Shown: piece after piece, positions 1 through 22,696 of the stretch
Layout of the letters: every line of letters begins with the position of its first letter
How positions within the stretch are numbered: the stretch's first letter is position 1
Assembly (NCBI GenBank): GCA_016839815.1
Contig: JAEOTM010000047.1
Location: forward strand, 1-64,000
Reading direction: 5' to 3'
Length of the DNA stretch: 64,000 nucleotides
From: Candidatus Hodarchaeota archaeon
Lineage (GTDB): Archaea > Asgardarchaeota > Heimdallarchaeia > Hodarchaeales > Hodarchaeaceae
Notes under the pieces: generated by a model
Told to the model about the DNA's origin: nothing
Databases searched by the model: none
Seen by the model: the letters and a program-made list of their open reading frames with translations, nothing else
Translations under genes and position numbers: made by a program

Positions 1-334
1 ACCAAGGCTCTAAAACTTCTTGAGTTATCTGAATTCTTCGATCTGCAGCCTCTGCACCAATCTTGGTCATCTTGATATTTTTCCGTTTCCTATCTCCCTG
101 ATAATCATCAGATATCTCTACCCAATTCGCACCTTCCATCTCTTTTAAAATGGGATAGATACGATTTGCTCCAGGTTTCCACCGGCCATTTGTAATTTTT
201 TCGATTTTCTTCATCAATTCGTACCCGTTTTGGGCTTTCTTTTGTTTAAGGAGATGGAGGACGATCAAACGTAAAAATCCTTGCTTCAAACGCGATTCAA
301 AACGGTCTATACGCTCTTTTTCACTCAAAGCCAT
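1..334 (-). CDS. PadR-family transcriptional regulator (3' end runs off the window)
   Basis: Not in the ORF track. Hand translation from ATG at 334 gives MALSEKERIDRFESRLKQGFLRLIVLHLLKQKKAQNGYELMKKIEKITNGRWKPGANRIYPILKEMEGANWVEISDDYQGDRKRKNIKMTKIG..., which fits the PadR wHTH pattern (GYEL, IYPxL, RK..TxxG). Confidence 0.9.
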   Translation of the reverse strand, partial: MALSEKERIDRFESRLKQGFLRLIVLHLLKQKKAQNGYELMKKIEKITNGRWKPGANRIYPILKEMEGANWVEISDDYQGDRKRKNIKMTKIGAEAADRRIQITQEVLEPW

Positions 335-361: not shown

Positions 362-384
362 TATATACCAAATTCAGATATATC
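362..384. promoter_or_regulatory. Putative PadR operator 1 (TATATACC-AAATTCA-GATATATC)
   Basis: Two octamer boxes 15 bp apart, just upstream of the padR start and in the divergent padR/SDR promoter. Confidence 0.75.
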
Positions 385-508
385 AGAAATAAGAAGTGCT
401 TAAAATCTTTATTCAATATATTACAATATGTGTAATTTAGAACTTTCCTCAATGTCAAAATCTTCAATTTGCACATGAACCGAAGGTTATTCTTTTACAA
501 ACAAACTT

Positions 509-1342
509 ATGCTAACAAACGAGATGTATATTCAAATGATGCTAAAAGATGGAACTGTTGCCGTAGTAACAGGTGGAGCTATGGGATTGGGATTATCGAT
601 CGCAAGAGAATTTGGCCAGGCTGGAGCTAATGTTGTCCTGCTAGATATTAATGAAGAAGCACTGAGTTCAAGCGTTACACAGTTAACCAAGGAAGGAAAT
701 TCCATTATTGGATTAGTTTGTGATGTATCAAACAATATGGATGTCCAAAAGACATTTGATGACATAAACCACCGATTTGGTCGAATTGATATTCTCGTAA
801 ACAATGCTGCTATTGCCCCAGAAACTCCTTTCATGCAATGCTCTGAAGAAACCTGGGATAAAATAATGAAGGTGAACTTGAAAGGATATTTTCTCTGTGC
901 GCAAGCTGCAGTTAAACATATGCTGGCGAAGAATATACCTGGCAGAATAGTCAACCTATCATCAATTTTAGGACTTAGACCAAAAGCTCTTCTCATTGCT
1001 TATACCACAACCAAAGGGGCTATTATTAGTTTAACACATTCCATGGCCTCTGAGCTTGGAGAACATGGTATCAGAGTAAATGCCATTGCTCCAGGAATGA
1101 TTGATACACCCATGACCACAAAAGGGTTTACTCCAATGGTAAAGAAGATGATAACTAATAGTATCCCTCTCAAACGATTAGGATCTCCAAGAGAAATTGG
1201 GAAAGCAGCTCTATTTCTATGCTCAGAATATTCTTCTTTTATTAATGGTCATGTTTTGGTTGTTGACGGGGGACAGCATACTGGTATTGTATCACAAAAA
1301 AGAAGCATAGAAAGCAGCGAAAAACCAATGCATGGACTTTGA
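509..1342 (+). CDS. SDR family oxidoreductase (FabG-like)
   Basis: TGGAMGLG, NNAA, catalytic YTTTK, VNAIAPG. Confidence 0.9.
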   Translation: MLTNEMYIQMMLKDGTVAVVTGGAMGLGLSIAREFGQAGANVVLLDINEEALSSSVTQLTKEGNSIIGLVCDVSNNMDVQKTFDDINHRFGRIDILVNNAAIAPETPFMQCSEETWDKIMKVNLKGYFLCAQAAVKHMLAKNIPGRIVNLSSILGLRPKALLIAYTTTKGAIISLTHSMASELGEHGIRVNAIAPGMIDTPMTTKGFTPMVKKMITNSIPLKRLGSPREIGKAALFLCSEYSSFINGHVLVVDGGQHTGIVSQKRSIESSEKPMHGL

Positions 1343-1395
1343 ATATTGTTCTAAAAAAAGAAAAAAATGAAAGAAAAAGAGAATGAAATTTCTCT

Positions 1396-2652
1396 TTAGT
1401 TCTTCTTTCGACGACTAATAACAGCTACTCCGATCAAGGAAATAAGAAGAAAAACTGCTTCAAATCCAGGAGTACCGTCATCTTCAGTTGTAGTTGTAGG
1501 TTCTTCGTCTGTGGTAGTCAATTCAGGTTCAGTTGTAGTTGTATCCGTGGGATCAGAAGTACCGAGAAGTCTAAGTTCGGAAACTGTTCCAAAACCCATC
1601 ATTTGAATCCAGAAGTCTTTAAGATGGAATTCATCAACTAATCCATTTGTTCGATCCCAAAGCATTTTGAGCAGAGGGCCACCCATGGTTGAACCAGATT
1701 GATAACCAAAGTGTGTAGCATTGTTTGTTACTATGTAACCTTTGTAGGTGTAATAAAGTTGAAAATGGTTCCATTCGCGTGATTTAACGTAACCCATGAG
1801 CATTGTTTCATTAGAGCTAACGTCACCGAAAACGAATTTTCCATATACTGAAGTTCCCATGAAGGATGTATTTATTGCAGTGATTTCAATATAGAAAACA
1901 TCACCTTGGGAGATTTGGGAGTCAGGAGCATCTGGATATGAATATGATCCATCAGTAATAGGATTACCCTCTGAATCTTTTAGCATATCCCACTTTAGCC
2001 AAATTTTATCGCCAACAGAAGCGCCATAATCAGTAACAGATTCATATCGCTGGATTAAGATTTCACTAAGTGTACCAAAACCCATCATTTGAATCCACAT
2101 ACCAGTCATTTCCCACTCTAACATGGCACCGTCATTAGCATCCCATTTGAATCGAAGTTCTCCACCCATTAAGGTGGTGTTGTATTGAAAGTAATCTCCT
2201 GGGACATAATCGACTGTATAACCTTTGCCTTCGTAATCATTTTGCCAATAGGTCCAATTGTACTCACTAGAATTCATTGGTTTGAAATAACCTCTAAGGG
2301 TTACATTTGGGGTGGATGATCCATCAGCGAATGAGAAAATACCATATGTATAAGGAGAAGTTTCACCTGAAGTCTGGTTAATGACAGTCATGTTTATCTC
2401 GGTAATATCGAGATAAAAATGATCTCCTTCTGATATATTAGAATCAGGGGCGTCTGGATATGAATAGCTACCATCCAAAATAGGATTTCCTTCACTATCC
2501 TTCACAGATGCCCATACATATTCAAATTGATCCCCAACTTCCACATTATAGTGACCCTCATGGGCAACAGCAGCTAATGCAGTATTATCCCAAGCTAACG
2601 GTACACTTGCTAATAAGAAGCTGAGAATAAGAATTATGTTTCTTTTTTTCAT
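1396..2652 (-). CDS. Cell-anchored protein with two tandem ~160-aa repeats and a PGF-type sorting tail
   Basis: Signal peptide. Duplicated KDSEGNPIxDGSYSYPDAPDS and WIQMMGFGT blocks. Thr/Glu linker, then TPGFE + TM helix + RRKKN. Confidence 0.85.
   Translation of the reverse strand: MKKRNIILILSFLLASVPLAWDNTALAAVAHEGHYNVEVGDQFEYVWASVKDSEGNPILDGSYSYPDAPDSNISEGDHFYLDITEINMTVINQTSGETSPYTYGIFSFADGSSTPNVTLRGYFKPMNSSEYNWTYWQNDYEGKGYTVDYVPGDYFQYNTTLMGGELRFKWDANDGAMLEWEMTGMWIQMMGFGTLSEILIQRYESVTDYGASVGDKIWLKWDMLKDSEGNPITDGSYSYPDAPDSQISQGDVFYIEITAINTSFMGTSVYGKFVFGDVSSNETMLMGYVKSREWNHFQLYYTYKGYIVTNNATHFGYQSGSTMGGPLLKMLWDRTNGLVDEFHLKDFWIQMMGFGTVSELRLLGTSDPTDTTTTEPELTTTDEEPTTTTEDDGTPGFEAVFLLISLIGVAVISRRKKN
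1589..2097. repeat. 23-bp exact direct repeat CCAAAACCCATCATTTGAATCCA (1589-1611 and 2075-2097)
   Basis: Offset is 486 bp (162 codons). It encodes the WIQMMGFG motif of the two protein repeats. Confidence 0.9.
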
Positions 2653-2748
2653 TTAAAAAAACTCACCGTTTTTAATTTATTGAAATCAATTCCTAATTAG
2701 GAAATTAACTCGAGTTGTTAGTTTTTTTATTACAATTAAAAGTGTATT

Positions 2749-2771
2749 GATATATTTTCTTTGGATATATC
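2749..2771. promoter_or_regulatory. Putative PadR operator 2 (GATATATT-TTCTTTG-GATATATC)
   Basis: 15-bp period. The second box sits in the perfect palindrome TTTGGATATATCCAAA (2760-2775). Upstream of the 2652 start. Confidence 0.75.
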
Positions 2772-2791
2772 CAAATTCACAAAAATCCCTT

Positions 2792-3136
2792 TCATGATTT
2801 CTGAGTGAAGAAGATATACCCTTTTTTCTTAAGATTCAAAAGAAAAGTAGCTAAACTTGATCGGACATTATCTTTATCTTGGCCTGCGTCTTTGATTAAC
2901 ATTTTTTCTATAACTCTGACGGAGTGTGATCCGTCACATAAATCCCAGACAAATTGACCAATTTCATCAATAACAATCACTTTCTTTTCCCGTTTATGAT
3001 CAATTATGTACTTTTTCCCCGGTTCCCAGTATCCCAGAAAAACATCAGGAAGTTTTTCTGGAAATAAATGATTTAGTTGAACACTATCACTCGGAAAAAC
3101 TGATTTACTTGCTTTATGTTCAGTTTTTCTGTTCAT
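2792..3136 (-). CDS. Stand-alone PqqD-family / RiPP recognition element (RRE) protein
   Basis: VIDEIGQFVWDLCDGSHSVRVI...SLATFLLNLKKKGYI is the typical PqqD wHTH signature. Confidence 0.85.
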   Translation of the reverse strand: MNRKTEHKASKSVFPSDSVQLNHLFPEKLPDVFLGYWEPGKKYIIDHKREKKVIVIDEIGQFVWDLCDGSHSVRVIEKMLIKDAGQDKDNVRSSLATFLLNLKKKGYIFFTQKS

Positions 3137-3227
3137 TTAACATTCCCACTAAATAGCACTGAATTTGTATTGGTTAATCCTATATTTCATGATGTGAAAA
3201 GAAAACTTCCTGAGATATTATAGACTT

Positions 3228-3269
3228 TTTAGAAAAAGGAAAGAGGGTGGAAGGTGTTTTTTACTTCCA
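3228..3269 (-). terminator. Possible terminator (TGGAAG...CTTCCA hairpin followed by a U/C-rich tract)
   Basis: Inverted repeat 3248-3253/3264-3269 just after the stop at 3286. A pyrimidine tract follows on the minus strand. Confidence 0.4.
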
Positions 3270-3285
3270 AGTTGAATTACTGAAG

Positions 3286-4209
3286 TTAATTCCGTTTTCT
3301 TTTGTAAAAGAGAACCACTAGTACAGTAAATCCAAAGATTGTAAATGGGAATGCGAATCCAGGTGAGCTTTCCTCAACATATTCACCAAGAATGGATATA
3401 GAACCCCATGTCTCTTGATCACTGAAGTTTGCATCCGATGGCCAGTCTATAAAGGGACCTCCTTCAGGATTAGCATCAGGGTCATTTGTTATTGACTCAT
3501 AGAGTGTCATTGATAACCCAACAGTTAAGGGAAGAGTTGGAGCAACAACATCATCAGGAAAACCTGGATTGAAGCTCGTTAAAGGAATTTTAAATGAAAA
3601 CATTTGATGAGGATTGGCTTCGTTCCATGATGATTGAAAGAAACCCCATAGTTGCAATGGAGGGATTAATCCCTGAGGTGGCATGTTGTGACAATAAGAG
3701 ACATCGAATCCATGGACTTCGCCGTCTTCTTCGTTTATACTTGCATTATACAACACTTGTTGACTGAAGTAAACATGACTCTCTCCAAATGTAGTGAAGA
3801 AGTACATATCGGTATTAGAAGTACCTACTTTGTCATGCATCGTATCAAAAGCAATTTGAGCATAATCTAATCGTGTTTGTTCTTGTACATAGATTGAATC
3901 GGCAAGAACGTAAAGGAATGTATTATCGTGTGCGATGTAAACAAATCCACCTTCGAGAGTTCGATTTTCATAATCACTTCCTGCTTCTCCAGGATTCGGG
4001 ATTAGAGAAATCTTTGTTACATCTTCATGTTCCCATTCTGCTTGCTTGATATTTCCAACTGTGATTGAATGATTTATTGGATAAAGGTCGTAATGTGTTA
4101 CCTCTTCTTGTACAACGTCAGTTGTATTAGCAGAAACCGATGGTACACCAACTACAATTACTGATAGTACCAAAATCATAGTAAAAATGAATTTTTTCAT
4201 TTCTTTCAA
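3286..4209 (-). CDS. Cell-anchored DOMON/CBM9-like beta-sandwich protein with PGF-type tail (start may be ATG 4200)
   Basis: Signal peptide. ITVGNIKQAEW...VYIAHDNTFLYV pattern. SPGFA + TM + KRKRN. The domain call is inferred. Confidence 0.65.
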   Translation of the reverse strand: MKEMKKFIFTMILVLSVIVVGVPSVSANTTDVVQEEVTHYDLYPINHSITVGNIKQAEWEHEDVTKISLIPNPGEAGSDYENRTLEGGFVYIAHDNTFLYVLADSIYVQEQTRLDYAQIAFDTMHDKVGTSNTDMYFFTTFGESHVYFSQQVLYNASINEEDGEVHGFDVSYCHNMPPQGLIPPLQLWGFFQSSWNEANPHQMFSFKIPLTSFNPGFPDDVVAPTLPLTVGLSMTLYESITNDPDANPEGGPFIDWPSDANFSDQETWGSISILGEYVEESSPGFAFPFTIFGFTVLVVLFYKRKRN

Positions 4210-4333
4210 ATCTCCATATCTTATAGATTTTTAACTTGACAGCTGTCTTTTTAAAAAGCCTATGGATAGCCAAACATCCATATTTTGAATATAATTTGAA
4301 ACATTCAAGATTCTTATTATAAGTTTCGTTTCT

Positions 4334-4356
4334 GATATATCAGGAATTGTTATATA
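4334..4356. promoter_or_regulatory. Putative PadR operator 3 (GATATATC-AGGAATT-GTTATATA)
   Basis: In the divergent promoter between 4209(-) and 4411(+). Nearly identical to the reverse complement of operator 1. Confidence 0.78.
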
Positions 4357-4410
4357 GAAATTTACGGAAATTTATGATATTGAAATGGTCTTTGGATCTT
4401 CCAAAATATC

Positions 4411-5178
4411 TTGACAGAGATGATAATTCATATGAATGTTGACTATTCAAAGATAGAGGAAAACAAAATAGTTATTACGGCTGATAACGAAACAATTACG
4501 TATGTACGAAAGGGTTTGCCACCATCAATTTTTGATTTCTTGATTGATTACCGATTAAGGGCAATTAAAGTAATGGTAGGGGAACAAGAAGATACTGATA
4601 ATGTTTCAGTGACTTCATCAATGTTACATTCACCTCCCATGGCAACAAGAGGATCTCCTGGGTTTTTCCCAGTCAATACCGCAGCAAAGGGAATTGGATT
4701 CATCCCTCAACAAGTCCATTTGGAGAAGTGGGTCGAGAAGTATGATGCTCTAATCAATGAAGCTTTAGAAAAGGGGGAAGATACGAATCGAGAAGCTCGT
4801 TTTGGAGCTCTTCTAGATTTGTATAATTCCAAAAATGAAATTGATCCAAAAAATCTTGGTACAATAGAACTTTTCGGCTTAAGATCTTGGAGAAATATGC
4901 AACAAGATCCTAGAGTGTCAATATTGTACAATGCAAATTATAGAACTAGCTCTGGTCGTCCACAATACATTTCCTTTGAAGTACGAGGGATTGTCGAGAT
5001 AATTCCCAAGGATACTCTCCGCTGGAGATGGCAACGAAATATTCATGATTTGTTTCACCTTCGAGGTGCAAAGGAACGACGAGCTGGTGATTGGCCAGTA
5101 GCAGTATTGAACATCCATGTAACAGAAGTGATTGACAAAAGGCCATTTGGTACTGCAAGTCAGGAGATCCTCGAATGA
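4411..5178 (+). CDS. Pyridoxamine-5'-phosphate-oxidase-like (FMN split-barrel) protein
   Basis: RSWRNMQQDPRVSILY and SFEVRGIVEII resemble split-barrel motifs. Confidence 0.6.
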   Translation: MTEMIIHMNVDYSKIEENKIVITADNETITYVRKGLPPSIFDFLIDYRLRAIKVMVGEQEDTDNVSVTSSMLHSPPMATRGSPGFFPVNTAAKGIGFIPQQVHLEKWVEKYDALINEALEKGEDTNREARFGALLDLYNSKNEIDPKNLGTIELFGLRSWRNMQQDPRVSILYNANYRTSSGRPQYISFEVRGIVEIIPKDTLRWRWQRNIHDLFHLRGAKERRAGDWPVAVLNIHVTEVIDKRPFGTASQEILE

Positions 5179-5219
5179 ATCGCTTTAGCTATTAATATGA
5201 AAATAGGTGAACTTGGATT

Positions 5220-6662
5220 ATGGAAGATCGTCTTTCTGAACTAGTAGACATAGCTATGCAACATAGCTGCAATTATACCGATTGCCGTTTTGTAAAGGAT
5301 GAATATGAACTTATTGAAGCAAAAAATGGATCTCCATCTAGAGTATCTAATTCCAATCGATTTGGAATTGGTATTCGTGTATTATTCAATGGAGCGTGGG
5401 GATTTGCTTCAACTAACAAACTAGAAAAAGTAGCATTACTAAAAAGTTTGGAGACTGCAATTAAAATAGCTAAAGTAACCGCAGAAAATACTAAAGTAAG
5501 GAAAGCCCTCTCTAATGAAAGATCATACGAAGATACCTATACAACCCCTCACAAGATTGACCCATTTTCTATTGACCCAAGTGAAAAAATAGAACCATTA
5601 ACAGAAGGAACAAAGCTACTAGCAGAGCAAGATTCTCGTATACGAAACGCTACTGCTACCTTATTAAGTAGAAAGTATTTTACTGAGCTTACTACCTCTG
5701 AAGGAACCCATATTTTACAATCCTTAATTCAATGTGGCGCTTCACTCACTGGAATGCTTATGGCTGGTCCTGGTGGAATGTCCATTCGAACTAGCGAAAA
5801 CTATAAAGCTCAAGGATATGAATTTATTGATGAGTTTGATCTCGATGAACAGGCTAGTATCGTAGGTAGCGATTTGAAGATCTTAGCTGACAAAGCAGTA
5901 AAAGCACCTTCAGGAACCTATAATCTGATTCTCGAACCATCACATCTAGGTCTAGCAATACACGAAAGCGTTGGTCACCCAACTGAACTTGATCGGGTAC
6001 TTGGTAGAGAAGCAGATTTTGCAGGAACATCATTTCTTACTCCCTCACACCTGAAGGGAGGTTTCAAATACGGTTCAGAACTTGTAAACATTGTACAGGA
6101 TCCTACTTTAACACCAGCCTTAGGAACTTATGCTTATGACGATGATGGTACGAAATCGCGTCGATTATATGTGATAGAAAATGGAGAATTTAATGCATTT
6201 CAAAGTGATCGATCAACAGCCAATGAAATCGGATCATCTCGCTCTAGTGGGAATAATCGAGCTCATGGGCATGATAGACTGCCTATAAATCGCATGGCAA
6301 ACCTTTACTTAGAACCAAACACCAAATATGCTCTTTCTTCTCTGGATGAACTCCTGGAAGAAGCAAAAACAGGAGTTTATGCCCTTTATTCAAGAACTCA
6401 CTCGATTTCACCAAATCGATCCAATTTTCAATTCACAACTCAGATGGGTTATTTGATCGAGGATGGGGAACTTACTACACCATTAAAGAACGTTGTTTAT
6501 GGGAGTCGAACCTTAGATTTCTGGAGGAACTGTCTTGCAACAACTAAGTCGGTCGAAATTTTTGGAACTCCCAATTGTGGGAAAGGAAATCCAGGTCAAA
6601 CTATCTGGACCTCTCATGGGGGTAGTCATACTTTGTTTGGAGACATACGAATAGGTGCGTGA
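5220..6662 (+). CDS. tldD: TldD metalloprotease (pair 1, catalytic subunit)
   Basis: GIGIRV..GAWGFAST, HESVGH, DDDG, RMAN, C-terminal CGKG. Confidence 0.92.
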   Translation: MEDRLSELVDIAMQHSCNYTDCRFVKDEYELIEAKNGSPSRVSNSNRFGIGIRVLFNGAWGFASTNKLEKVALLKSLETAIKIAKVTAENTKVRKALSNERSYEDTYTTPHKIDPFSIDPSEKIEPLTEGTKLLAEQDSRIRNATATLLSRKYFTELTTSEGTHILQSLIQCGASLTGMLMAGPGGMSIRTSENYKAQGYEFIDEFDLDEQASIVGSDLKILADKAVKAPSGTYNLILEPSHLGLAIHESVGHPTELDRVLGREADFAGTSFLTPSHLKGGFKYGSELVNIVQDPTLTPALGTYAYDDDGTKSRRLYVIENGEFNAFQSDRSTANEIGSSRSSGNNRAHGHDRLPINRMANLYLEPNTKYALSSLDELLEEAKTGVYALYSRTHSISPNRSNFQFTTQMGYLIEDGELTTPLKNVVYGSRTLDFWRNCLATTKSVEIFGTPNCGKGNPGQTIWTSHGGSHTLFGDIRIGA

Positions 6663-8058
6663 TCAGATGAAAGATAAATTAGTCTCAAAAGAAGCGAATG
6701 AGCTTGCACAAGATATTATTAGTATTGGATTAGAACAAGGTGCTTCAGAGTTTCAGGTAAAGATTCGTGACACTTACGCAATTTATATTCGATTTGCCAA
6801 CTCAGAAATTCATCAATTCTCTACGGAAAATATTCGTGAAATTAAGCTAGTAGCTCTAATTGGTAAGAAAAAAGGATTATCTCTCGTCGTACCCACAACA
6901 GATGAAGATCTAATAAGGTCAATTAATTATCTAGTTTCTGCTACCAAGGTAAATTCAGAAGATCCAGATCAGTTATCTTTTTACTCATCAGGAAAGGAGT
7001 ATCAAGATTTAAAATTAGTAGATGAATCATTTAAATCTTGGGATCAGGAGTATATGGCTAAAATTGTTTCCAATGTAATCCAAACAGCACATCAAGTTGA
7101 TGACAGGGTTAAAAATGTCAGTGGAATGTTACAAGCAATGAACCATCAGATATTCTTGGTGAATAGTCAAGAATTAGCCCTTAAAACTAATCAAACTGAA
7201 TATTGGTACGGTGTCGATGTTCTTGCTAAAAAAGGAGGAAAATCTGGTAGAAACTCCCAAGGAGAGACAAATCGTTTCGCTAAGAATATTCCATTTAACG
7301 AACTTGCTGAAACTGCTGCAAAATATGCTATTCTGGGAATTAATCCAGTAAAGCTTGAACCAGGAGATTATCCTGCCATTTTAGATTATTATGCTGTTCT
7401 TGAACCAATTGTATTCGTCAATCTTGGGCTTAGTGGACTATTTGTCAAACAACACAGAAGCTTTCTTGCTCGAAAAATGGGAAAAAAAATATTTTCTGAA
7501 AAATTCAATTTAAAACATTCTCCTTTCTTATCATCACTGGTAACTTCGAAAGCGTTTGATGATGAAGGAATTCCAACACAAGAATTCTATTTCATTAAAG
7601 AAGGAGTCTTAGAATCACTCGCTCATAACAGATTGACAGCCTCTCAGATGGAGAAAGAGCCTAATGGATGTGGTTATGAGTCAGAACGGACATCATTTGG
7701 TATTCCGACAGCTACGCTTCTTGAACCTTCGGAAGAGATAGGTATGGAAGATTTGATACGAGAAATGGACCGTGGAATTTTAATCTCTAGATTATACTAT
7801 TCCAATTGGGCTAATCCTATGGCAGGAATTTTAACAGGTACCACAAGAAACGGATTCTTTAAAGTTGAATCAGGAGAAATAACTACCGCTCTGCATCCTA
7901 TGAGACATAGTACGTCTATTTTTGAAATGTTTGGTGAGGGAATAAGATTAGCTAACAAGGTTCACCAACCACCAATGCAAATGATGCCTGGGGTACAATC
8001 CATTATGGTTCCTGCTTTAATGTCTTCTAAAATGCATATGACTACATATTCAAACTAG
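6655..8058 (+). CDS. pmbA: TldE/PmbA subunit (pair 1)
   Basis: RFANSEI, FDDEG, TGTTRNG. Lacks HExxxH. Overlaps the tldD stop. Confidence 0.88.
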   Translation: MRDQMKDKLVSKEANELAQDIISIGLEQGASEFQVKIRDTYAIYIRFANSEIHQFSTENIREIKLVALIGKKKGLSLVVPTTDEDLIRSINYLVSATKVNSEDPDQLSFYSSGKEYQDLKLVDESFKSWDQEYMAKIVSNVIQTAHQVDDRVKNVSGMLQAMNHQIFLVNSQELALKTNQTEYWYGVDVLAKKGGKSGRNSQGETNRFAKNIPFNELAETAAKYAILGINPVKLEPGDYPAILDYYAVLEPIVFVNLGLSGLFVKQHRSFLARKMGKKIFSEKFNLKHSPFLSSLVTSKAFDDEGIPTQEFYFIKEGVLESLAHNRLTASQMEKEPNGCGYESERTSFGIPTATLLEPSEEIGMEDLIREMDRGILISRLYYSNWANPMAGILTGTTRNGFFKVESGEITTALHPMRHSTSIFEMFGEGIRLANKVHQPPMQMMPGVQSIMVPALMSSKMHMTTYSN

Positions 8059-8082
8059 TGTCAGTAAAGGGATATAATAATT

Positions 8083-8592
8083 ATGAAAGAAGCAATTATT
8101 TTAGCGATGCATGGTGCTCCTCCTAATGATTTCCCTTCCGAAGAGATGGAAGAATTCTTTCGACTCCATAGCCAGCATGAAGCATCCCCAGAGAGGTTAA
8201 GTGAGGAAGCAGAATCCCGCTTGCATGTTCTGGAAAAAAAGATGAGAGAGTGGCCACGGAATGCAAGTAATGATCCCTACTTTTACGGCTCATTAGACAT
8301 TGCAGAACAGCTTAGAAAAGTTACAGACAAATCAGTAACCGTAGGCTTTAATGAATTTTGTTCACCTACCATTCTGGAAGCGATAGAACAAATAATTAAA
8401 GAAGGAGCTAAGAAAATTATTGTTTTGACCACAATGTTAACACGTGGAGGAAATCATTCAGAAAAAGACATCCCCAAAGAAATTTCCAAGGCCAAGAAGC
8501 GGTTTCCTAAAGTTCCAATAACCTATCTCTGGCCATATGACTCTCTATCAATTGCAGAGTTTCTATCACAAGAAATTAAGAAGATTATTTAA
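8083..8592 (+). CDS. CbiX/SirB-like class II chelatase-family protein
   Basis: IILAMHG, GFNEFCSPTI, GGNHSEKDIP (two His metal ligands). Confidence 0.8.
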   Translation: MKEAIILAMHGAPPNDFPSEEMEEFFRLHSQHEASPERLSEEAESRLHVLEKKMREWPRNASNDPYFYGSLDIAEQLRKVTDKSVTVGFNEFCSPTILEAIEQIIKEGAKKIIVLTTMLTRGGNHSEKDIPKEISKAKKRFPKVPITYLWPYDSLSIAEFLSQEIKKII

Positions 8593-9329
8593 CAGATAGG
8601 GATCTGTACATCTTCTCCTGTTAACTCTAAGATCATTCTTTTCTGATCCCTGACTATTTGACCATCACGTAACCAACATATTCTGTCTGCGATGTCAATC
8701 AGTTTTAAATCATGTGTTGTATTTATTACAGTTACACCCGTCTCTCGATTTAGCTTTTTAAGCAATTCCACAATTTGAGTTCCTGTTTGAAGATCTAAAT
8801 TAGCTGTTGGTTCATCTGCAAGAATTAAACTTGGCTTATTTGCAATCGCTCGAGCTATTGCAACTCGTTGTTGTTGTCCCCCACTTAATTCTCCTGGTAA
8901 ATGGTGCATTCTGTTTTCTAAGCCAACCAATGTCAAAGCTTCCTTGGCCCGTGCACTAATTTCTTTCCTAGATTTTCCTGACAATTGTAAGGGGAATGCT
9001 ACGTTGTCTAATGCTGTTAAAGAGTCAATGAGGTTAAATGTTTGAAAAACAAATCCTATCTTAAAGACCCGAAGGGATGAAAGTTCTGGTTTATCGAGAT
9101 CAGATAGAGCTAATCCGTCAATTAAACATTCTCCTTCACTTGGTACATCCAGAGCTCCTACCATATTCAATAATGTTGTTTTTCCTGATCCAGATGGTCC
9201 CATTATGACAATGTACTCCCCTGGACTTACTTTCAGGTTGATTCCTCGTAATGCATGAACTTTTTCATCCCCAATTTCGAAATACTTGCGTAAATCTTGA
9301 ATTTGGACTGTTAATTTTGCATCTGACAT
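8589..9329 (-). CDS. ABC ATP-binding protein (LolD/MacB type)
   Basis: [27 protein letters not shown]. Confidence 0.93.
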
Positions 9330-9332
9330 TTC

Positions 9333-10091
9333 TTATTCTGCTCCGATTGTAGGGTCCTCACAAGCGCCTTCATCTCCCGCAAGGGTCACTTTCACATTAT
9401 GAATAGTTTCAATACGCTTGATTTTTCCATCTTCAATCCATATAATACGATCCGATACATCAATCATCTTAAGATCATGAGTAGCAGTTAGAATGGTTGT
9501 ACCTTGTTCTGTGTTTAAATCACGCAATAAAGTTATAATCTCTAATCCTGTTTCAAGGTCTAGATTTCCAGTTGGTTCATCTGCAAGAATAATAGCCGGT
9601 TCATTGACAAGTGATCGTGCAATGGCTACTCGTTGTTGCTGTCCCCCACTCAACTGAGCTGGTCGATGATCCATACGATCGCCTAATCCCACTAGTTTTA
9701 ATACTTCTTCTACTTTCTTCTGACGAGGTTCTCTAGGTTTTTTAGCAAATATCGCAGGCATCTCGACATTTTCAAATGCTGTAAGATTCGGAATTAAATT
9801 GAATGTTTGGAAAATATACCCGATTTTTCTGCAACGAAGCCATGCTAGTTCATATGCATCCAATTTAGCAATGTCAACCTCATCAATATACACTCGGCCC
9901 TTTGTTGGTTGATCTAATCCACCTACGCAATTGAAAAATGTTGTTTTTCCACTACCAGATGGTCCCATTAAACTTACATATTCTCCATGCTTGATTTGAA
10001 CAGAAATTCCTTGTAAAGCGTCAACTCTTTCTTGTCCCATAAAATATGTTCTATAGATGTCTTCTACTTTAAGCGTATACTGAAAACTCAT
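9333..10091 (-). CDS. ABC ATP-binding protein (LolD/MacB type), paralog
   Basis: [31 protein letters not shown]. Confidence 0.93.
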   Translation of the reverse strand: MSFQYTLKVEDIYRTYFMGQERVDALQGISVQIKHGEYVSLMGPSGSGKTTFFNCVGGLDQPTKGRVYIDEVDIAKLDAYELAWLRCRKIGYIFQTFNLIPNLTAFENVEMPAIFAKKPREPRQKKVEEVLKLVGLGDRMDHRPAQLSGGQQQRVAIARSLVNEPAIILADEPTGNLDLETGLEIITLLRDLNTEQGTTILTATHDLKMIDVSDRIIWIEDGKIKRIETIHNVKVTLAGDEGACEDPTIGAE

Positions 10092-10110
10092 TGTTTACAC
10101 CCAGGTTTCT

Positions 10111-10740
10111 TTACGTTCTTCTTAATGCCTCGGCTGGATTCAATCTGGAAGCTCCATATACAGGAATTATGGATGCAAAGACAACTAATATGCTTGACAA
10201 AATTACTCCTCCAATACCTAAAAGACCAATAAACTCCGTTTGTGTATTTAGGAAAGCCATTGTAGAATCATAGTTAAATTCCAACAATGTTAATCCAATT
10301 CCAATCAGTACTCCTAAAATCGAACCAAATATCCCTGATATAATCCCTATGAAGAGACTTTCAAAGAGGAAAAGTTTGATTACATGACTGGGTAGAGTAC
10401 CAAGAGTCATGTATGTTCCAATTTCTCCACTACGCTGTCCCACTTCCATGAACATAGAATTAGTGACACCTACAACACATAATATTAGTCCTACTAAAAA
10501 TAAGTAACTCTGTTCTCTCGCTATATTAGATGTTGGATCAAAATGGTCTACTAACATTGAATAGACAATCAGGGTAATAATAAAGGAGATACCCAGTATG
10601 ATACCGACACTAGTAATTAGTACTCGTCCTTTTCTCTGACGGATATTTTTCCATGCATGCTTAAGAGCTGTTGTGGAAGTATATTGGGTTTTGGGTAATC
10701 CTAACCTGTTCAGTTTAGTCATTAACAATATCCTCCTCAA
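10111..10740 (-). CDS. Short FtsX-like ABC permease
   Basis: Four TM helices, QRSGEIGTYMTLG, C-terminal LNPAEALR. Almost no extracellular domain. Confidence 0.85.
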   Translation of the reverse strand: MRRILLMTKLNRLGLPKTQYTSTTALKHAWKNIRQRKGRVLITSVGIILGISFIITLIVYSMLVDHFDPTSNIAREQSYLFLVGLILCVVGVTNSMFMEVGQRSGEIGTYMTLGTLPSHVIKLFLFESLFIGIISGIFGSILGVLIGIGLTLLEFNYDSTMAFLNTQTEFIGLLGIGGVILSSILVVFASIIPVYGASRLNPAEALRRT

Positions 10741-11101
10741 TCTCTTCTGGATGTTCCAAAGTTTCTAGCTTCAAACTATCATCAATGATTTGTCTCCACT
10801 GGATTTTTTCTGTAATTAACTCTTCAAGATGAGATTTGAGAACTATTCTTGCTTTCTCTTCACCCAATCGTGTTGCATTCCACGTAACATATGGGGAATA
10901 AAATCTTGCACGTTCTAACTGAGCTTGATTCTCAACAATTTCAAATTTAATAAATCCTAACTCTCCTAAATAGCAAACTGAATTTGGACAAAGAATATCA
11001 ACTTCTCTCATTTCCTTTTTAAGGTAAAGTATGTTATAATCAGAAGAGTCATTCAATTTGTGGCCACAAGGACATTGTGCATGTGTTTCTTTAGAATCCA
11101 T
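10715..11101 (-). CDS. Hypothetical Cys-rich (zinc-ribbon-like) protein
   Basis: CPCGH and CPNSVC motifs. First gene of the ABC operon. Confidence 0.65.
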   Translation of the reverse strand: MDSKETHAQCPCGHKLNDSSDYNILYLKKEMREVDILCPNSVCYLGELGFIKFEIVENQAQLERARFYSPYVTWNATRLGEEKARIVLKSHLEELITEKIQWRQIIDDSLKLETLEHPEEIEEDIVND

Positions 11102-11218
11102 TTCTAAACTTCCAAAGAGACGAAATAAAACTGAGATTACTGGTAACTACTGTGTAGTGGTATTTTATTTCCCCTATTTATCGTGATTGGTCTTATTTTC
11201 TTAAGTGTTGTCTTCTCT

Positions 11219-11256
11219 GATATATTGGATTTTGATATATCGGTGTTTGATATTTA
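11219..11256. promoter_or_regulatory. Putative PadR operator 4, triple box (GATATATT-N7-GATATATC-N7-GATATTTA)
   Basis: Three octamers at 11219, 11234 and 11249, upstream of the ABC operon. Confidence 0.8.
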
Positions 11257-11266
11257 AAAATGATCC

Positions 11267-12664
11267 CTATCCAACAATTTTCCCAAGTTTGGTTTTTCTG
11301 GGTTTCCCAAGAATTCTTAGATGATCAACTCGCATACTCGGAATTTTTGAAAAGTATCCTGAATCTACTTCATCACCAATTCCTGATATCTTACCTAATA
11401 GTTCATAGATATTTCCAAAAATCGATATTTTACCCACAGCCTTTGATTCTTTTCCATTTTTTATGTTAAAGGCTTCTGATGTCCTCAATTCGAAATCTCC
11501 AGTAAGAATATCTAGATAATTCAAAGAAGCAATCCCATTAACCCTTACTCCATTCGTTATTCCCTCCTGCAATTGATTATCCCCCTGTTTGGTCGGTTTA
11601 ATCAATAAATTTGTTAGAATAATAGAGGGGGGAATACGATGTATAGGATTACCTATGATATCTGGTATGCCTCGTAACGTATTTCCAGAGGGCGATTGAT
11701 TACCTGCATGTATCAGATCTTTGGGCTTATTTTTTAGCATTCCTTCACGATATAGTAGTAATTCTTTCGTTTGTATTCCCTCATGGTCAAATGGACTAGA
11801 ACCTAGCCGTGTAGCATCATTCGCATCCTCTCGTACTTCAATCAAAGGTGAGATTTGCCTTGGTAAATCAGGATTTTTGGGATTTATTGAATTTGAAAGG
11901 AGAGGACGGAGAATCAGATCACCAATTTGACACATTGCACTAGTATCAAAAACGACTGTCAGGATTTGATTATCTGTTATTCTTTTAGGTTTTGTATATT
12001 CCTTTGACTCAGCTAGTTCAGCATCAAAATCTATTGACAAAGCATCTGTAAGATTCCGATAAATTCTCCTATAATTCTTTTCAAAAATAATCTCAGCTTT
12101 AAGACCTGCTATAAACCGCGCTTGAGTCATTATAAAAGAATCAGAGTGATTGATACTTAAATCATTAGAATTAACTATTGCAATATCTCGTTTTTTAGTC
12201 GCTACAACACCCGATTCAAGATATATGGGCACTTTATGAGCTTGAACGGAATCTCGAAGAGTTTGAGCGTGTTCTACTATTTCGGTTAAAGAAAATCTAT
12301 CGATTTTTGAATCATATTGATTCAGAAATTCATTATTCATCTGAGGTTTTTCGGATGCAAATTCAAATATTTTCGAAGAAAAAGCTGGAACAGAGGAATT
12401 CAAAATAGAACTTAGCTTATCTTCAAGGGTTTCCTTATTGTATCCATCAATCGTTTGGAAAACCATTTGACTATTCTTTTGGTAGCGAATACCAAATCCA
12501 AGTTCTTCTGATGTGGAAAGATCCACAATCTTACTTGAGGAAAATAATACCTGTTTTACTATAGATTGAGTCCCGAATACCTCCGCTGTAGCAGCTCCAG
12601 ATTTCATAACTTCATCGTATACTTCTCTCGTTTGTTCCAACAGGGTGTTTTGGGTTGATTCCAT
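11267..12664 (-). CDS. pmbA: Divergent TldE/PmbA-like subunit (pair 2)
   Basis: GFGIR, SSPFDHEG, TGDFEL, GNIYELL. Confidence 0.8.
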   Translation of the reverse strand: MESTQNTLLEQTREVYDEVMKSGAATAEVFGTQSIVKQVLFSSSKIVDLSTSEELGFGIRYQKNSQMVFQTIDGYNKETLEDKLSSILNSSVPAFSSKIFEFASEKPQMNNEFLNQYDSKIDRFSLTEIVEHAQTLRDSVQAHKVPIYLESGVVATKKRDIAIVNSNDLSINHSDSFIMTQARFIAGLKAEIIFEKNYRRIYRNLTDALSIDFDAELAESKEYTKPKRITDNQILTVVFDTSAMCQIGDLILRPLLSNSINPKNPDLPRQISPLIEVREDANDATRLGSSPFDHEGIQTKELLLYREGMLKNKPKDLIHAGNQSPSGNTLRGIPDIIGNPIHRIPPSIILTNLLIKPTKQGDNQLQEGITNGVRVNGIASLNYLDILTGDFELRTSEAFNIKNGKESKAVGKISIFGNIYELLGKISGIGDEVDSGYFSKIPSMRVDHLRILGKPRKTKLGKIVG

Positions 12665-12683
12665 TCGTATTTCGTCCTCTTAC

Positions 12684-14069
12684 CTATCTTTCTTGAACTT
12701 GAAATCGTTCGAAAAGCATACTTGGGGAAACTACTCCACAGATGATACCACCACCTTTTGTACAGTGGATCCCTGACACAACAGCTTTATTTCCAATCTT
12801 TTGAAGGCCTGTAGTAAAATCTTTGATTGGTGAAGTAATGATTACTGACAGGGGGAGATCTTTATGCAATTCTCCATTTGTAAAAAGAAGAGAATGTTCT
12901 GGTAATATTTTCAATGTATTATTTGGCCAATCTACCGAGACTTCCAAAGATCCTTGACAAAAAACCCCTTGTTGAGCTTTAGTCATCATTTCGTGAATAC
13001 TCGCATCCCCAGGTTGTATCTTGAGATTTGTAGTTACAGGGAAGAGATACTGGTTATTCAATGATAAACGTGCATTTCCACTGTTTTTTACTTTTAGAGT
13101 TTCTGCAGAGTTAGAATCTGTAATATAGCTAGTAACTACTCCATCTTTCACTAGAATCGTTTCTGTACTCGGTAATCCCTCAGCATCGAGATAAAACTTT
13201 ACTAGTCGAGGATCCGAATAATTTGGTATGTCATGAATGCTTATAGCTTTTGAAAAAATCCTTTTCTTATATTTTTTCCTCCAAGGACTCCCAGAAACAG
13301 CAAAATCACCATCTAAACCATGGATCAGTTCATGAAATATAGCTCCTGTCAGATTTCCGTCCATAATGACGGGCATCCTTTTCTTGGGTGGTAAGGTAAC
13401 AAGTGTCGAATTTAGAAATCTCTGAGCTTTGGTTTTACCAGTTATTGCAGCAAGTTTTGGAGAAAAATTTGTTTTGTTTATTGCCCCAGCTAAAGTAAAA
13501 GACCGATGTAGTTTTTTCAGTGCATATTCATAATGCATATTAAGATCCAAGTTAAATTCTGATATTGGATAAGACACAAATTGAGCGTTAGAATTACCTA
13601 AGTATAACATTCCCTCTCTATCCTGATATCTAAAACTAGTTTCTATTCTTGAAGAAATTTCCCTAATTGATGAATCAATCTTCTTCAGAAAGTTAATCTT
13701 TTCCCTATCTGAAATATCCTGTTCTTTTTCCTCTAATAATCGACTAGATTTCATGTCATTTAATTTATGAAGGACTGGCTTTTGAGAAATCTGAGGTTCT
13801 ATCGAACCAGATGTTCGAAGGGATGAAAAAGCATTTTCAACTACTTGGTTGAGAGACTGATCAGATATAGATGTTGTATGGCTATGACCAAAGGATTCAT
13901 CAATCCAGAGAGCTAGGTATAATTCGATACGATCTGAAGTATGATTCCACTCTTTTTTCCCTTGTGAAAACGTTAATTCAAAACATTTAAGCTGTGTTAA
14001 TCTAATCTCAGAGTAAGTGGCACCTTGTTCTTTACAAAGAGTGGTAATAATCTTAAAAGTATTGTACAA
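12684..14069 (-). CDS. tldD: Divergent TldD-like subunit (pair 2)
   Basis: FHELIHG, DAEG, SGNAR, C-terminal CTKGG. Confidence 0.8.
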   Translation of the reverse strand: MYNTFKIITTLCKEQGATYSEIRLTQLKCFELTFSQGKKEWNHTSDRIELYLALWIDESFGHSHTTSISDQSLNQVVENAFSSLRTSGSIEPQISQKPVLHKLNDMKSSRLLEEKEQDISDREKINFLKKIDSSIREISSRIETSFRYQDREGMLYLGNSNAQFVSYPISEFNLDLNMHYEYALKKLHRSFTLAGAINKTNFSPKLAAITGKTKAQRFLNSTLVTLPPKKRMPVIMDGNLTGAIFHELIHGLDGDFAVSGSPWRKKYKKRIFSKAISIHDIPNYSDPRLVKFYLDAEGLPSTETILVKDGVVTSYITDSNSAETLKVKNSGNARLSLNNQYLFPVTTNLKIQPGDASIHEMMTKAQQGVFCQGSLEVSVDWPNNTLKILPEHSLLFTNGELHKDLPLSVIITSPIKDFTTGLQKIGNKAVVSGIHCTKGGGIICGVVSPSMLFERFQVQER

Positions 14070-14166
14070 TCAAAAACCTCAGGTTTGAAGAATATTGGGA
14101 GGGAATAGCTATTGTTTACAATTGAATTCTGTTGAGTTAAATAATTAGTTTAAAGGAATATGAATG

Positions 14167-14201
14167 AAAAAAAACGAAGAAAGGAAGTATATTCTTCCTT
14201 T
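14167..14201 (-). terminator. Hairpin plus U-tract terminator after the OPT gene
   Basis: AAAGGAAG-TATATT-CTTCCTTT (14180-14201) followed on the minus strand by CTTCG and T8. Confidence 0.6.
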
Positions 14202-14220
14202 ATTCTACTTAGAGTCTATC

Positions 14221-16413
14221 TTATGTCTTGGGTTTTCGTAGATAACCAAGATTCTTTCTTCTGGTGAGTAAGGAATATATAATTATGACGATTACAATCA
14301 CTGCTATCCCAAGTACAATTGCTATAATTGCTCCAGGATCGAACGCGAAATAGAGGTTAATAAATACATCTACTGCTGTTATCACACCAACTCCAGTTAA
14401 TGCACCGGCTCCAATTGGCATACCTATGTCCATGAAGCCCTCGACTCCTTTACTTCGAATAAATACTATTCTAATTAATCCACCAATACCCATGGTGACA
14501 ATTAAGAACGGTGGCATTGCTGTACCAATACCTACACCTATAGGATTTATAGGAGCAAACCCTAATGGAATTCGAATTAAGACAAGAATAACACCGATAA
14601 GAGCACCTAATAATAATGGTAAAATTTTGAAAACCTCTAAGCTCCCTGATAAAAAGGCAAGAGAGGTCTCAATTCCGGGATCCCATGCTTGAGTGGGTAA
14701 TTTCTCTGATCTAAGTCCATAAGCACTCCAAAGAAATAATGCTACAAAAGGACCAATGAGCATAGGAATCCCACGTCTTATAAATTCACTTGCTCCTACC
14801 TTCCAGAATGTTAAATTGATCTGTTCAGCCATAACACAATGAGCAATATACCCACAACCAGATTGTTGTGCGGAAAACGTAACACCACCTATTGAATATG
14901 CAGGATAATTCATACGAATTCCCGATAGGAAAATTGTCAAATCGAACAATTGTGGAGAGGGGGCCATACCCATTCCCATTGTACCGAGAGATCTTGTAAT
15001 CATCAAGTTTGATAGAAGCGGAAAAATCGTCACTAGAAAAAGTACTACAATAATCCACAGAGGATCGAAATAATCTGATAAAACGATCCATATTATCCCG
15101 TATACAATTCCTACCCCAAAGAAAACTAGTAAGCTGGTAGTTAATGGTAATTCCCCTTGTTTTGATATAGATCGCATCTTTTTCAGATCTCTTAAAGAAG
15201 CGACTAATAATTTACTAGAAAGTAGTAGGGGAAGCATTGAACCAACAAAAATGATTGCTGCTGAGAATGAAATTCCCCAAATGCTTTGAGATTCTCCCCA
15301 AAGTGCCATTATTGCTCCCTTAGAACCCCCTTCACTCGTATACTTCAGAAATGGCCATAAACCTTCAAAGTTTATTCCTTCAGCAAACCAGGAAAGATCT
15401 GCATACTTGCCATAAGGATTAAATCCAATTGTCCACATAATTGCTAACATAGGCATAATTACTAAAGAGAAGGTCAGGGCACCCAAAAGAGCTCCAAAGG
15501 AAACCTCTTTTGGTACTAAAAAGCCTAGGATTAAGAAAAAGGCGTTAAAGCTAACAGCAAAGAATGCACCTTTTAATAGTGGATGAATATTCCATAATTC
15601 TTCTGTGAAAAAGATACTTGTTTCAATAATCCCGCCCCGTGAACCTGGATCATCCACAGGTAATGCAGGATTCAAAAAAGGAAGCCAATCTAGAATAGAT
15701 CGAATCGGTTCAATTTTGGTTATATTATACATCAAATCGGGCATATTTACATCAAGAGTATTTGGAATGTACAGTATCGTCATTACAATTGTAGCACCAA
15801 GAAGTCCTCTTACGAAATATTTGAATCGATAATCCATTTTACCAGAGGCTAGATTCTGGACTGTTTCCGCTTTTAGGGAATGGATTGGCCATGGCATGAC
15901 TTCTAATTCCATATAGTATTTTCTAAGAATAAACCCAAATCCTAAACCACTTAAGATACCAATTTGGTAGAGAAGGAAGAAAAATATTATAGGATAAAGC
16001 CATTCAACAGCAATAGGTATTCTATCCGCAATTATACCTGAATTTATATCAGGCAACATCCACCATGGTAAGGTTATTCCTGCATCGATTATTTTCTCGT
16101 GAGTAGCAAACTGAATCCAATATACAACTGATGAGGCGGACAAAGCAGGTGTTGCAGCTAAGACTAATCCTAATTCTTGTTTTGTGGCTTTTTCTCCAGT
16201 CCATGCAAAATACCTAGAGATTATTAATCCCGCAACAAACATGAAGGCCCAACCACTGAAGATACCAGTAGTCATATCTGCATAAGTGGCTGCGAATGAG
16301 AAAAAACCGCCTAAGACGGTCATGGCAAGAATTACTCGTAGTGACATTTCCCGTTTTTTGTTAACATTTACTGCTGAGGCCTTTAGAACCTCTTCTGCAT
16401 TATAATCACTCAT
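14221..16413 (-). CDS. OPT/YSL-superfamily oligopeptide transporter
   Basis: About 730 aa, highly polytopic. N-terminal SLRVILA, TKQEL, MPWP, C-terminal GVGIG..PP motif. Confidence 0.75.
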   Translation of the reverse strand: MSDYNAEEVLKASAVNVNKKREMSLRVILAMTVLGGFFSFAATYADMTTGIFSGWAFMFVAGLIISRYFAWTGEKATKQELGLVLAATPALSASSVVYWIQFATHEKIIDAGITLPWWMLPDINSGIIADRIPIAVEWLYPIIFFFLLYQIGILSGLGFGFILRKYYMELEVMPWPIHSLKAETVQNLASGKMDYRFKYFVRGLLGATIVMTILYIPNTLDVNMPDLMYNITKIEPIRSILDWLPFLNPALPVDDPGSRGGIIETSIFFTEELWNIHPLLKGAFFAVSFNAFFLILGFLVPKEVSFGALLGALTFSLVIMPMLAIMWTIGFNPYGKYADLSWFAEGINFEGLWPFLKYTSEGGSKGAIMALWGESQSIWGISFSAAIIFVGSMLPLLLSSKLLVASLRDLKKMRSISKQGELPLTTSLLVFFGVGIVYGIIWIVLSDYFDPLWIIVVLFLVTIFPLLSNLMITRSLGTMGMGMAPSPQLFDLTIFLSGIRMNYPAYSIGGVTFSAQQSGCGYIAHCVMAEQINLTFWKVGASEFIRRGIPMLIGPFVALFLWSAYGLRSEKLPTQAWDPGIETSLAFLSGSLEVFKILPLLLGALIGVILVLIRIPLGFAPINPIGVGIGTAMPPFLIVTMGIGGLIRIVFIRSKGVEGFMDIGMPIGAGALTGVGVITAVDVFINLYFAFDPGAIIAIVLGIAVIVIVIIIYSLLTRRKNLGYLRKPKT

Positions 16414-16607
16414 TCAGTTTTACCTCTATTTTGTCCATTTCTGATTGAATTATGAAAGCACAAAGATCCTTGGATTATTTATCCAAAAAAGCGATAAGAA
16501 TAAGTCTTTCTTCTTCATTCTTAAGAGTTATGGCATATTCGCTATATTAGCACAAATCCTACCAATTTAGATGTAAAAAAATGAGAATTACCACTTTTTT
16601 ATTTATG

Positions 16608-16630
16608 GATATGTCCGAATCTGATATATC
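16608..16630. promoter_or_regulatory. Putative PadR operator 5 (GATATGTC-CGAATCT-GATATATC)
   Basis: 15-bp period, mid-way in the divergent OPT/FtsX promoter. Confidence 0.75.
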
Positions 16631-16806
16631 AAATGGTTTACTCTTCTACTTTATTTCAAATATCGCCATATTAACTTGAAGGATTTGTAAGTTTAACAGC
16701 ACTCGGATTCAATTCAGCAAATATGGAATATTATCTAAGGAAATTTTCTTTATCAACATAAAATATATCAATATAAAATTCAGACTTTTTTTATGGAGTT
16801 AAATTT

Positions 16807-18546: not shown

Positions 18547-18579
18547 TAAATTATTCCCCGCATATAGAAAGGAAATACA

Positions 18580-21443: not shown

Positions 21444-21474
21444 GAATTATTTCACAAATACTTAGTGATTTACA

Positions 21475-22692: not shown

Positions 22693-22696
22693 ACAC

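Follow-up and report, generated by a model that had tools for sequence, protein, structure and literature searches.

A short inverted repeat recurs upstream of the transcription units of a peptidase and transporter gene cluster in the window analyzed here, a 64-kb stretch that opens contig C101 of an uncultured Candidatus Hodarchaeota archaeon (assembly of 4.24 Mb, 36% GC and 206 contigs, labelled G000). Comparative analysis strongly supports the conclusion that this repeat, or dyad, defines a local regulon, with five promoter regions in the window and one more on a second contig (C155:1884). The cluster includes padR, encoding a PadR-family winged helix-turn-helix (wHTH) regulator (2–334, minus strand), and a homodimer of this protein probably binds the dyads as a repressor of the cluster and of padR itself.

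The five sites in the window each contain the perfect octamer GATATATC once, at 377, 2764, 4334, 11234 and 16623. Site 1 (362–384, TATATACC-N7-GATATATC, matrix score 24.2) is located between padR and a short-chain dehydrogenase (SDR) gene on the plus strand, and site 2 (2749–2771, GATATATT-N7-GATATATC, score 18.0) is located 97 nt upstream of a surface-protein gene. Site 3 (4334–4356) reads GATATATC-N7-GTTATATA and scores 20.8. Site 4 (11219–11256) has three boxes at a 15-bp period, GATATATT, GATATATC and GATATTTA, with scores of 20.7 and 16.9, and site 5 (16608–16630, GATATGTC-N7-GATATATC), in the divergent OPT/MacB region, scores 25.6, the highest value genome-wide. An earlier reading of the window, made from the sequence only, had given the coordinates of these boxes correctly and had placed all sites in intergenic DNA upstream of transcription units, including that of padR, which our analysis confirmed. 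The same reading described octamer boxes at an exact 15-bp period; this is accurate for the spacing, but the perfect octamer is found only once per site, the partner box 15 bp away having one or two mismatches at every site and the third box at 11249 having two. The near identity that it reported between site 1 (reverse complement) and site 3 extends over 24 of 28 bases, or 27 of 33 when flanks are included.

Alignment of 36 half-sites from three species indicated that the core ATATAT and the inner C are kept in 31–36 of the 36, and that the spacer is A-rich beside the inner C. The inner C is kept in 33 half-sites and the outer G in 23. Because the inner C is kept far more often than the outer G, the element is one inverted repeat rather than two autonomous palindromes, and it is best written as (G)ATATATC-N7-GATATAT(C), 21–23 bp in length. 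The proposal of the sequence-only reading that each box is itself palindromic is therefore not upheld, and cooperative tandem binding of two or three boxes, which it had also suggested, is not a general feature: the third box is limited to site 4 of G000, and the relatives have two boxes at this position. A lone AATATATC box was also observed at 16762–16769; it precedes the MacB start codon by about 40 nt, is conserved in the relative G002, and may be the TATA box of the MacB gene rather than an operator half-site.

The dyad is highly specific to this cluster within the genome. Ten matches to box-N7-box with at most two mismatches were found in 4.24 Mb, and six of the ten lie within C101:1–17000, whereas the fifteen other spacings between 0 and 15 gave 2–10 matches each and none in that region, with the exception of artefacts at site 1, which are N9 and N11 frame-shifted readings of the TATATATA run. 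With the background rate taken from outside the region, the Poisson probability of at least five loci in 17 kb is about 9e-12. The octamer GATATATC occurs 147 times genome-wide, 25 times in intergenic DNA, and six of these 25 intergenic copies are in the cluster. In the 64-kb window six dyads scored between 16.9 and 25.6 and the next best match scored 12.3; intergenic DNA beyond 24 kb contains no paired motif, as the earlier reading had noted.

A weight matrix was also built from 11 sites of the relatives G001 and G016 only and then scanned over G000. The five best of 4.24 million positions were cluster sites, as were seven of the ten best, and the high-ranking matches outside the cluster were inside long open reading frames (ORFs). 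Among the 517,503 intergenic positions of G000 the seven best were all cluster dyads, so that the motif is not equally common in other AT-rich intergenic DNA; in G000 it is confined to this cluster.

One of these seven best intergenic dyads is C155:1884, on a 9.4-kb contig, upstream of an operon encoding a PNPOx-like paralogue, an M28 peptidase and a second PNPOx-like paralogue. In G001, G002 and G016 the orthologues of these genes are physically linked to the cluster itself, and the orthologous operon is preceded by a dyad in G001 and G016, G002 being without that gene. The linkage and the dyad together point to a regulon of six promoter regions and about 25 genes. Its peptidase and transport part comprises three TldD/E pairs, three M28 aminopeptidases, an OPT importer and ATP-binding cassette (ABC) parts of the MacB/FtsX type, and its other members are two anchored surface proteins, PNPOx-like proteins, a CbiX-like protein, the SDR gene and padR. 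The regulon that had been called probable from the window sequence is thus supported by the confinement of its sites in the genome and by their conservation upstream of orthologues, and it is extended by the C155 locus.

Conservation was examined in relatives in which the cluster is syntenic (G001, G002, G007 and G016). Syntenic loci based on TldD1 were found in four metagenome-assembled genomes, with 79% identity in B3_Heim (Heimdallarchaeota), 68% in Hodarchaeota DZ1M.117, 64% in Hodarchaeum mangrovi and 82% in the fourth. The first gene of the site 3 operon, which had been unannotated and was used as a marker (unk255), has orthologues in five of the 24 genomes of the order and only remote homologues (24–31% identity) elsewhere in the phylum. 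In Hodarchaeum mangrovi and Hodarchaeota DZ1M.117, dyads are conserved in front of the orthologous genes. In G001 and G016 the dyads precede orthologous genes whose proteins are 58–68% identical and whose intergenic flanks are unalignable. The site 3 dyad is conserved in all four relatives though its flanks diverge, and site 5 is conserved in G001 and G016, G002 having lost one box. At site 2 the dyad is kept in G016, and a single box is found in G001, G002 and G007.

In addition, a one-mismatch dyad was observed in G016 outside the cluster (L015:8185; G016:C105:12184), in a 244-aa ORF unlike the cluster genes. It could be a chance match or an extra target.

The pattern of retention among the relatives points to PadR as the protein that reads the dyad. 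The padR-containing genomes G001 and G016, which are more distant from G000 than is G002, have five or six dyads each. G002, though it is the closest relative of G000, has only two full dyads; a box has been lost at sites 2 and 5, and the other three loci are lacking. A clean deletion in G002 has removed padR, site 1 and the SDR gene (L019:9825–10019), in a contiguous 78-kb contig, and in G007 only a 3' remnant of padR was found, equivalent to about residues 94–134 of the G001 orthologue (L024:1500–1680; G007:C55, about 4179–4350). These comparisons support the view that dyad retention follows the presence of padR and not phylogenetic distance.

The cluster contains no other recognized regulator gene. 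The marker gene unk255 was considered as a possible hidden regulator and was rejected, its product looking PNPOx-like and not DNA-binding. Orthologues of PadR with at least 56% identity were found only in G000, G001 and G016, in each case within the cluster. A dyad with two mismatches precedes padR in G000 and one with three mismatches precedes it in G001; G016 has, at this position, a perfect GATATATC box paired with GATATATA at N6 spacing. The assignment of the motif to PadR, which the sequence-only reading had inferred from the autoregulatory position, has thereby gained comparative support, padR having a site of its own in all three genomes with an intact gene; resting as it does on sequence association, the assignment is supported but not proven.

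The protein itself is a recognizable member of the family. Although padR is cut at its 3' end by the start of the contig, leaving 111 of about 143 aa, the window protein matched Pfam PF03551 with 52 bits against a cutoff of 27, and the orthologues of G001 and G016, which are 143–144 aa long, matched with 48 and 46 bits. The best match in PDB to a profile of the cluster PadRs was Bacillus subtilis PadR (5x11, E 1.5e-16), and RosR was matched with E 4e-7. When the three orthologues were aligned to 5x11, equivalents of Tyr20, Tyr42 and Lys67 were present in GY(E/Q)L (Phe in G001), in IYPIL and in a basic R/K run in the wing. The orthologue alignment contains one invariant His and no Cys, and neither a TRASH domain nor a His-rich segment was found in the cluster PadR orthologues. 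Metagenome contigs scanned with the PadR alignment gave no match.

An association between PadR genes and the dyad was also found in other Asgard archaea. In a survey of 400 Asgard genomes the dyad, with at most one mismatch, occurred about 131 times in 82 genomes, and the reversed control occurred about 38 times (totals counted by hand from the table). In whole-genome analyses of three unrelated Asgard archaea, G025, G269 and G397, which were chosen solely for having several dyads, six of the 15 dyads were within 500 bp of one of the 27 PadR genes identified with Pfam, where about 0.06 would be expected by chance. A preliminary test limited to ±1.5 kb on each side of 26 dyads from other genomes detected a PadR gene at only three of them; its window was too narrow, and its hidden Markov model, built from three sequences, was too weak. 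Dyads are located directly upstream of PadR genes in G025, G116, G269 and probably G023. In G269, the gene for a PadR without a TRASH domain has a triple-box, operator-like site, is followed by an ABC ATPase gene and is divergent from an M20 peptidase gene, and in its sequence features this arrangement parallels the present cluster.

Two further dyad arrangements were observed in other Asgard genomes. On L049 (G072:C273) dyads recur with a 75-bp period, at 1276, 1501, 1576 and 1651, which suggests a tandem array rather than separate promoters. In G275 nearly the same 23-mer occurs on three contigs (C42:15414, C378:44548 and C110:2031), as GATATCTCCGTGAATGATATATC at two of them and as a two-base variant at the third, which suggests a repeated element or a duplicated promoter.

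Several observations weigh against PadR as the repressor that reads these sites. The padR gene of G000 is truncated by the contig end. Dyads with at most two mismatches persist at sites 3 and 4 of G002 and G007 without padR. In the PadR tree the dyad-associated proteins did not form one clade, the clade of the cluster proteins (support 100/99) being apart from the TRASH clade (90/98), and no signature common to the dyad-associated PadRs was found among the recognition-helix residues. The operator of B. subtilis PadR is TGT-N8-ACA and that of Halobacterium salinarum RosR is TGT-N10-ACA, and the ATATATC-N7-GATATAT dyad has no TGT/ACA half-sites. Finally, sites 2, 4 and 5 are 90–200 nt from the start codons, and occlusion of a promoter is only a possibility there.

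Some of these observations raise the possibility that the dyad is a real operator read by another protein, either a PadR paralogue or an unrelated factor encoded elsewhere. The dyads that remain in the two genomes without padR would then have a reader, each genome encodes 3–8 further PadR paralogues, and the dyad is associated with PadR clades that are distinct in the phylogeny. We nevertheless consider another reader unlikely, since no second regulator gene was recognized in the cluster, since the location of all strong intergenic dyads of G000 in the cluster gives no indication of a factor with further targets, and since the retention of dyads among the relatives tracks padR.

If the cluster PadR is the reader, one homodimer would occupy each dyad, with one wHTH domain on each half-site. 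A dimer would be in keeping with the two-fold symmetry of the operator and with the 20–25 bp palindromes to which MarR/PadR proteins bind (PMC7145548), and one dimer per dyad is the simplest arrangement because an 8-bp box would be too short for a dimer of its own. PadR bound to a dyad that overlaps or abuts a TATA-like sequence would block the TATA-binding protein (TBP) and transcription factor B (TFB), resulting in repression; it would repress its own gene as well, and an effector would release it from the DNA. We infer repression and autorepression by analogy with characterized PadR repressors (PMC5728393, PMC7981267).

The geometry of several promoters is compatible with this mechanism. 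At sites 1 and 3 the box nearer the gene is itself TATA-like (GGTATATA and GTTATATA), and the distance from the proximal box to the padR ATG is 27 nt in G000 and 21 nt in G269. From box 2 to the start codons it is 46–68 nt at site 3 and at C155-type sites, and towards the OPT gene the site 5 dyad borders directly on a conserved stretch that is A/T-rich and TATA-like. These positions near TATA-like sequences fit a bound protein that would exclude TBP and TFB. Genome-wide, TATA-like words showed no positional peak relative to start codons, and mRNAs are Shine-Dalgarno-led.

Alternatively, at sites 2, 4 and 5, which are distal, PadR might activate transcription or have a dual role, and it would then recruit TBP and TFB from upstream of the TATA box. 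The long distances from these sites to the start codons would suit such a role, and the site 5 dyad, just upstream of its TATA-like stretch, is in the position of an archaeal activator. However, a dyad at the position of the TFB-recognition element could equally block TFB, and B. subtilis PadR and Escherichia coli NfeR are repressors (PMC5728393, PMC7981267), Vibrio AphA (PDB 1yg2) being an exception that activates. Moreover, G002 keeps the genes after the loss of padR, which fits constitutive expression. Activation is thus a quite improbable alternative to repression by PadR.

A non-regulatory origin of the repeats, as chance AT-rich matches, TATA boxes, duplicated promoters or the ends of recombination or mobile elements, might be proposed because the genome is AT-rich, TATA-like 8-mers are enriched in its intergenic DNA and the 8-7-8 layout superficially resembles a recombinase core site, but it is extremely improbable and is effectively refuted by the genome-wide dyad counts, by the specific N7 spacing, by the matrix ranking and by the Poisson probability; it is further opposed by the scarcity of intergenic GATATATC copies, by flanks that are unrelated except between sites 1 and 3, by the persistence of the motif where flanks diverge and by the absence of an Rfam match. 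A recombination site was rejected because spacers differ from site to site, which is incompatible with crossover regions, and a miniature inverted-repeat transposable element, a promoter duplication and a general TATA box were rejected on the basis of N7 specificity, of differing spacers and flanks and of the rarity of the intergenic octamer.

The genes adjacent to the sites were annotated from Pfam matches, Atlas features and synteny. The SDR gene divergent from padR (509–1342, plus strand) matched Pfam adh_short_C2 with E 4e-73, and the padR-SDR pair is syntenic in G001. In G016 a KAS-III/thiolase-like gene, and not padR, is divergent from the SDR gene across the dyad (L014:13447–14526), so that the local partner of the SDR promoter differs among genomes. 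The unit behind site 2 (1396–2652, minus strand) encodes a surface protein that has both a signal peptide and an anchor of the Heimdall-CTERM/PGF-CTERM type. A second unit on the minus strand (2792–4209), which is divergent from site 3, encodes another Heimdall-CTERM surface protein (3286–4209) followed by a PqqD-like protein (2792–3136).

The operon at 4411–8592 (plus strand) encodes a PNPOx-like protein, TldD1, TldE1 and a CbiX-like protein. The PNPOx-like gene thus shares its operon with TldD1/E1 and the gene for a CbiX-like chelatase, a combination that gives a hint of flavin or tetrapyrrole chemistry. In all, the regulon seems to encode four PNPOx-like proteins of the split-barrel kind, judging from Atlas features at 0.94 and weak PF01243 matches; one is encoded in the window (4411–5178) and three on C155 (L033, 614–1741, 1963–3063 and 4377–5492).

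Site 4 is located upstream of an operon on the minus strand (8589–11101) for a zinc-ribbon protein, a small FtsX permease and two ABC ATPases. The protein ahead of the permease (10715–11101, 128 aa) has an N-terminal CxC...CxxxxC that resembles a zinc ribbon, and the split into two ORFs is kept in all relatives. The stretch between site 4 and the operon start (11102–11218) is unusually conserved among G000, G002 and G007 and contains a small conserved hairpin (ACTAC...GTAGT), for which no Rfam match was found; it could be a structured 5' leader. No Rfam family was found in the window from 1 to 24000.

The TldD2/TldE2 pair (11267–14069, minus strand) lacks a dyad, with no matrix score above -0.2 in 14070–14220, and it is possibly co-transcribed with the gene for an OPT-family oligopeptide transporter (14221–16413, minus strand). 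The latter assignment is based on a weak Pfam OPT match that is below the cutoff (E 1.5e-4), and hydropathy suggested 15 hydrophobic segments in the protein. The operon at 16807–23944 (plus strand) encodes a MacB-like permease, TldD3, TldE3 and two M28 aminopeptidases, with synteny in G001 and G002. No signal peptide was found among the cluster peptidases.

The cluster offers an unusually clean case for study, in which six promoters, the short dyad common to them and a single candidate regulator set a group of genes apart from the rest of the genome, and G002 and G007 provide a natural padR-deletion lineage for comparison. That three TldD/E pairs, whose function is unclear, fall into one putatively co-regulated unit together with peptidases, an OPT importer and ABC parts also provides a functional hypothesis. 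Literature searches found no experimentally worked-out transcription-factor regulon in Asgard archaea, and no relevant paper on the octamer was found.

Among known systems, E. coli NfeR (YqjI), a PadR-family repressor that depends on nickel and controls nfeF (yqjH) as well as its own gene (PMC7981267), resembles the cluster PadR in its wHTH region (33% identity, E 5e-11) and in its divergent arrangement, which is autoregulated in E. coli and probably so here. The E. coli nfeF-nfeR intergenic region contains two perfect AGATATATCT boxes, one near each gene, with the same GATATATC core as the sites described here. In contrast to the archaeal system, however, the E. coli boxes do not form an N7 dyad, NfeR has a His-rich N-terminus (SHHHEG) that is absent from the archaeal PadR, and its regulon has two genes rather than about 25. 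The PadR-TRASH regulators of metal islands in Asgard archaea are similar in that the same GATATATC-N7-GATATATC dyad directly precedes both the PadR gene and target operons (G025, G116, G023 and G397). They differ in having a C-terminal TRASH-like metal-binding domain, in forming a separate clade, and in having heavy-metal P-type ATPases as targets instead of peptidases and transporters.

B. subtilis PadR and Lactococcus LmrR are dimeric, autoregulated repressors that are released by ligands and have palindromic operators, and the Tyr/Tyr/Lys residues by which DNA is contacted are conserved in the cluster PadR (PMC5728393). With 143 aa, the cluster PadR falls between the sizes of subfamily 2 (11–13 kDa) and subfamily 1 (19–22 kDa), and unlike B. 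subtilis PadR and LmrR it is predicted to act at archaeal TBP/TFB promoters. H. salinarum RosR, an archaeal MarR/PadR-like wHTH dimer that needs about 25 bp of DNA (PMC7145548), differs in its half-site sequence and is a global regulator of oxidative stress, whereas the present motif is limited to a single cluster.

In kind, the system is most likely an ordinary local, autoregulated PadR-type repressor and operator. What is new is the Hodarchaeales host, the unusual content of the regulon, and an operator type, resembling that of E. coli NfeR, that is common to Asgard PadRs with different sensor modules; from these sequence comparisons, one DNA-reading module appears to have been combined with different sensors. 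A more speculative proposal, to which we give rather low confidence, is that GATATATC-N7-GATATATC is an ancient operator code of a PadR lineage common to Asgard archaea and E. coli NfeR and linked elsewhere to metal homeostasis, in which case the regulon may respond to a metal or metal chelate. The gene content behind this proposal includes the three TldD/E pairs, the M28 zinc peptidases, the OPT importer, the CbiX-like chelatase and the PNPOx-like proteins. If it is correct, the TldD/E proteases would scavenge or process peptide-bound metal or tetrapyrrole rather than serve general peptide catabolism.

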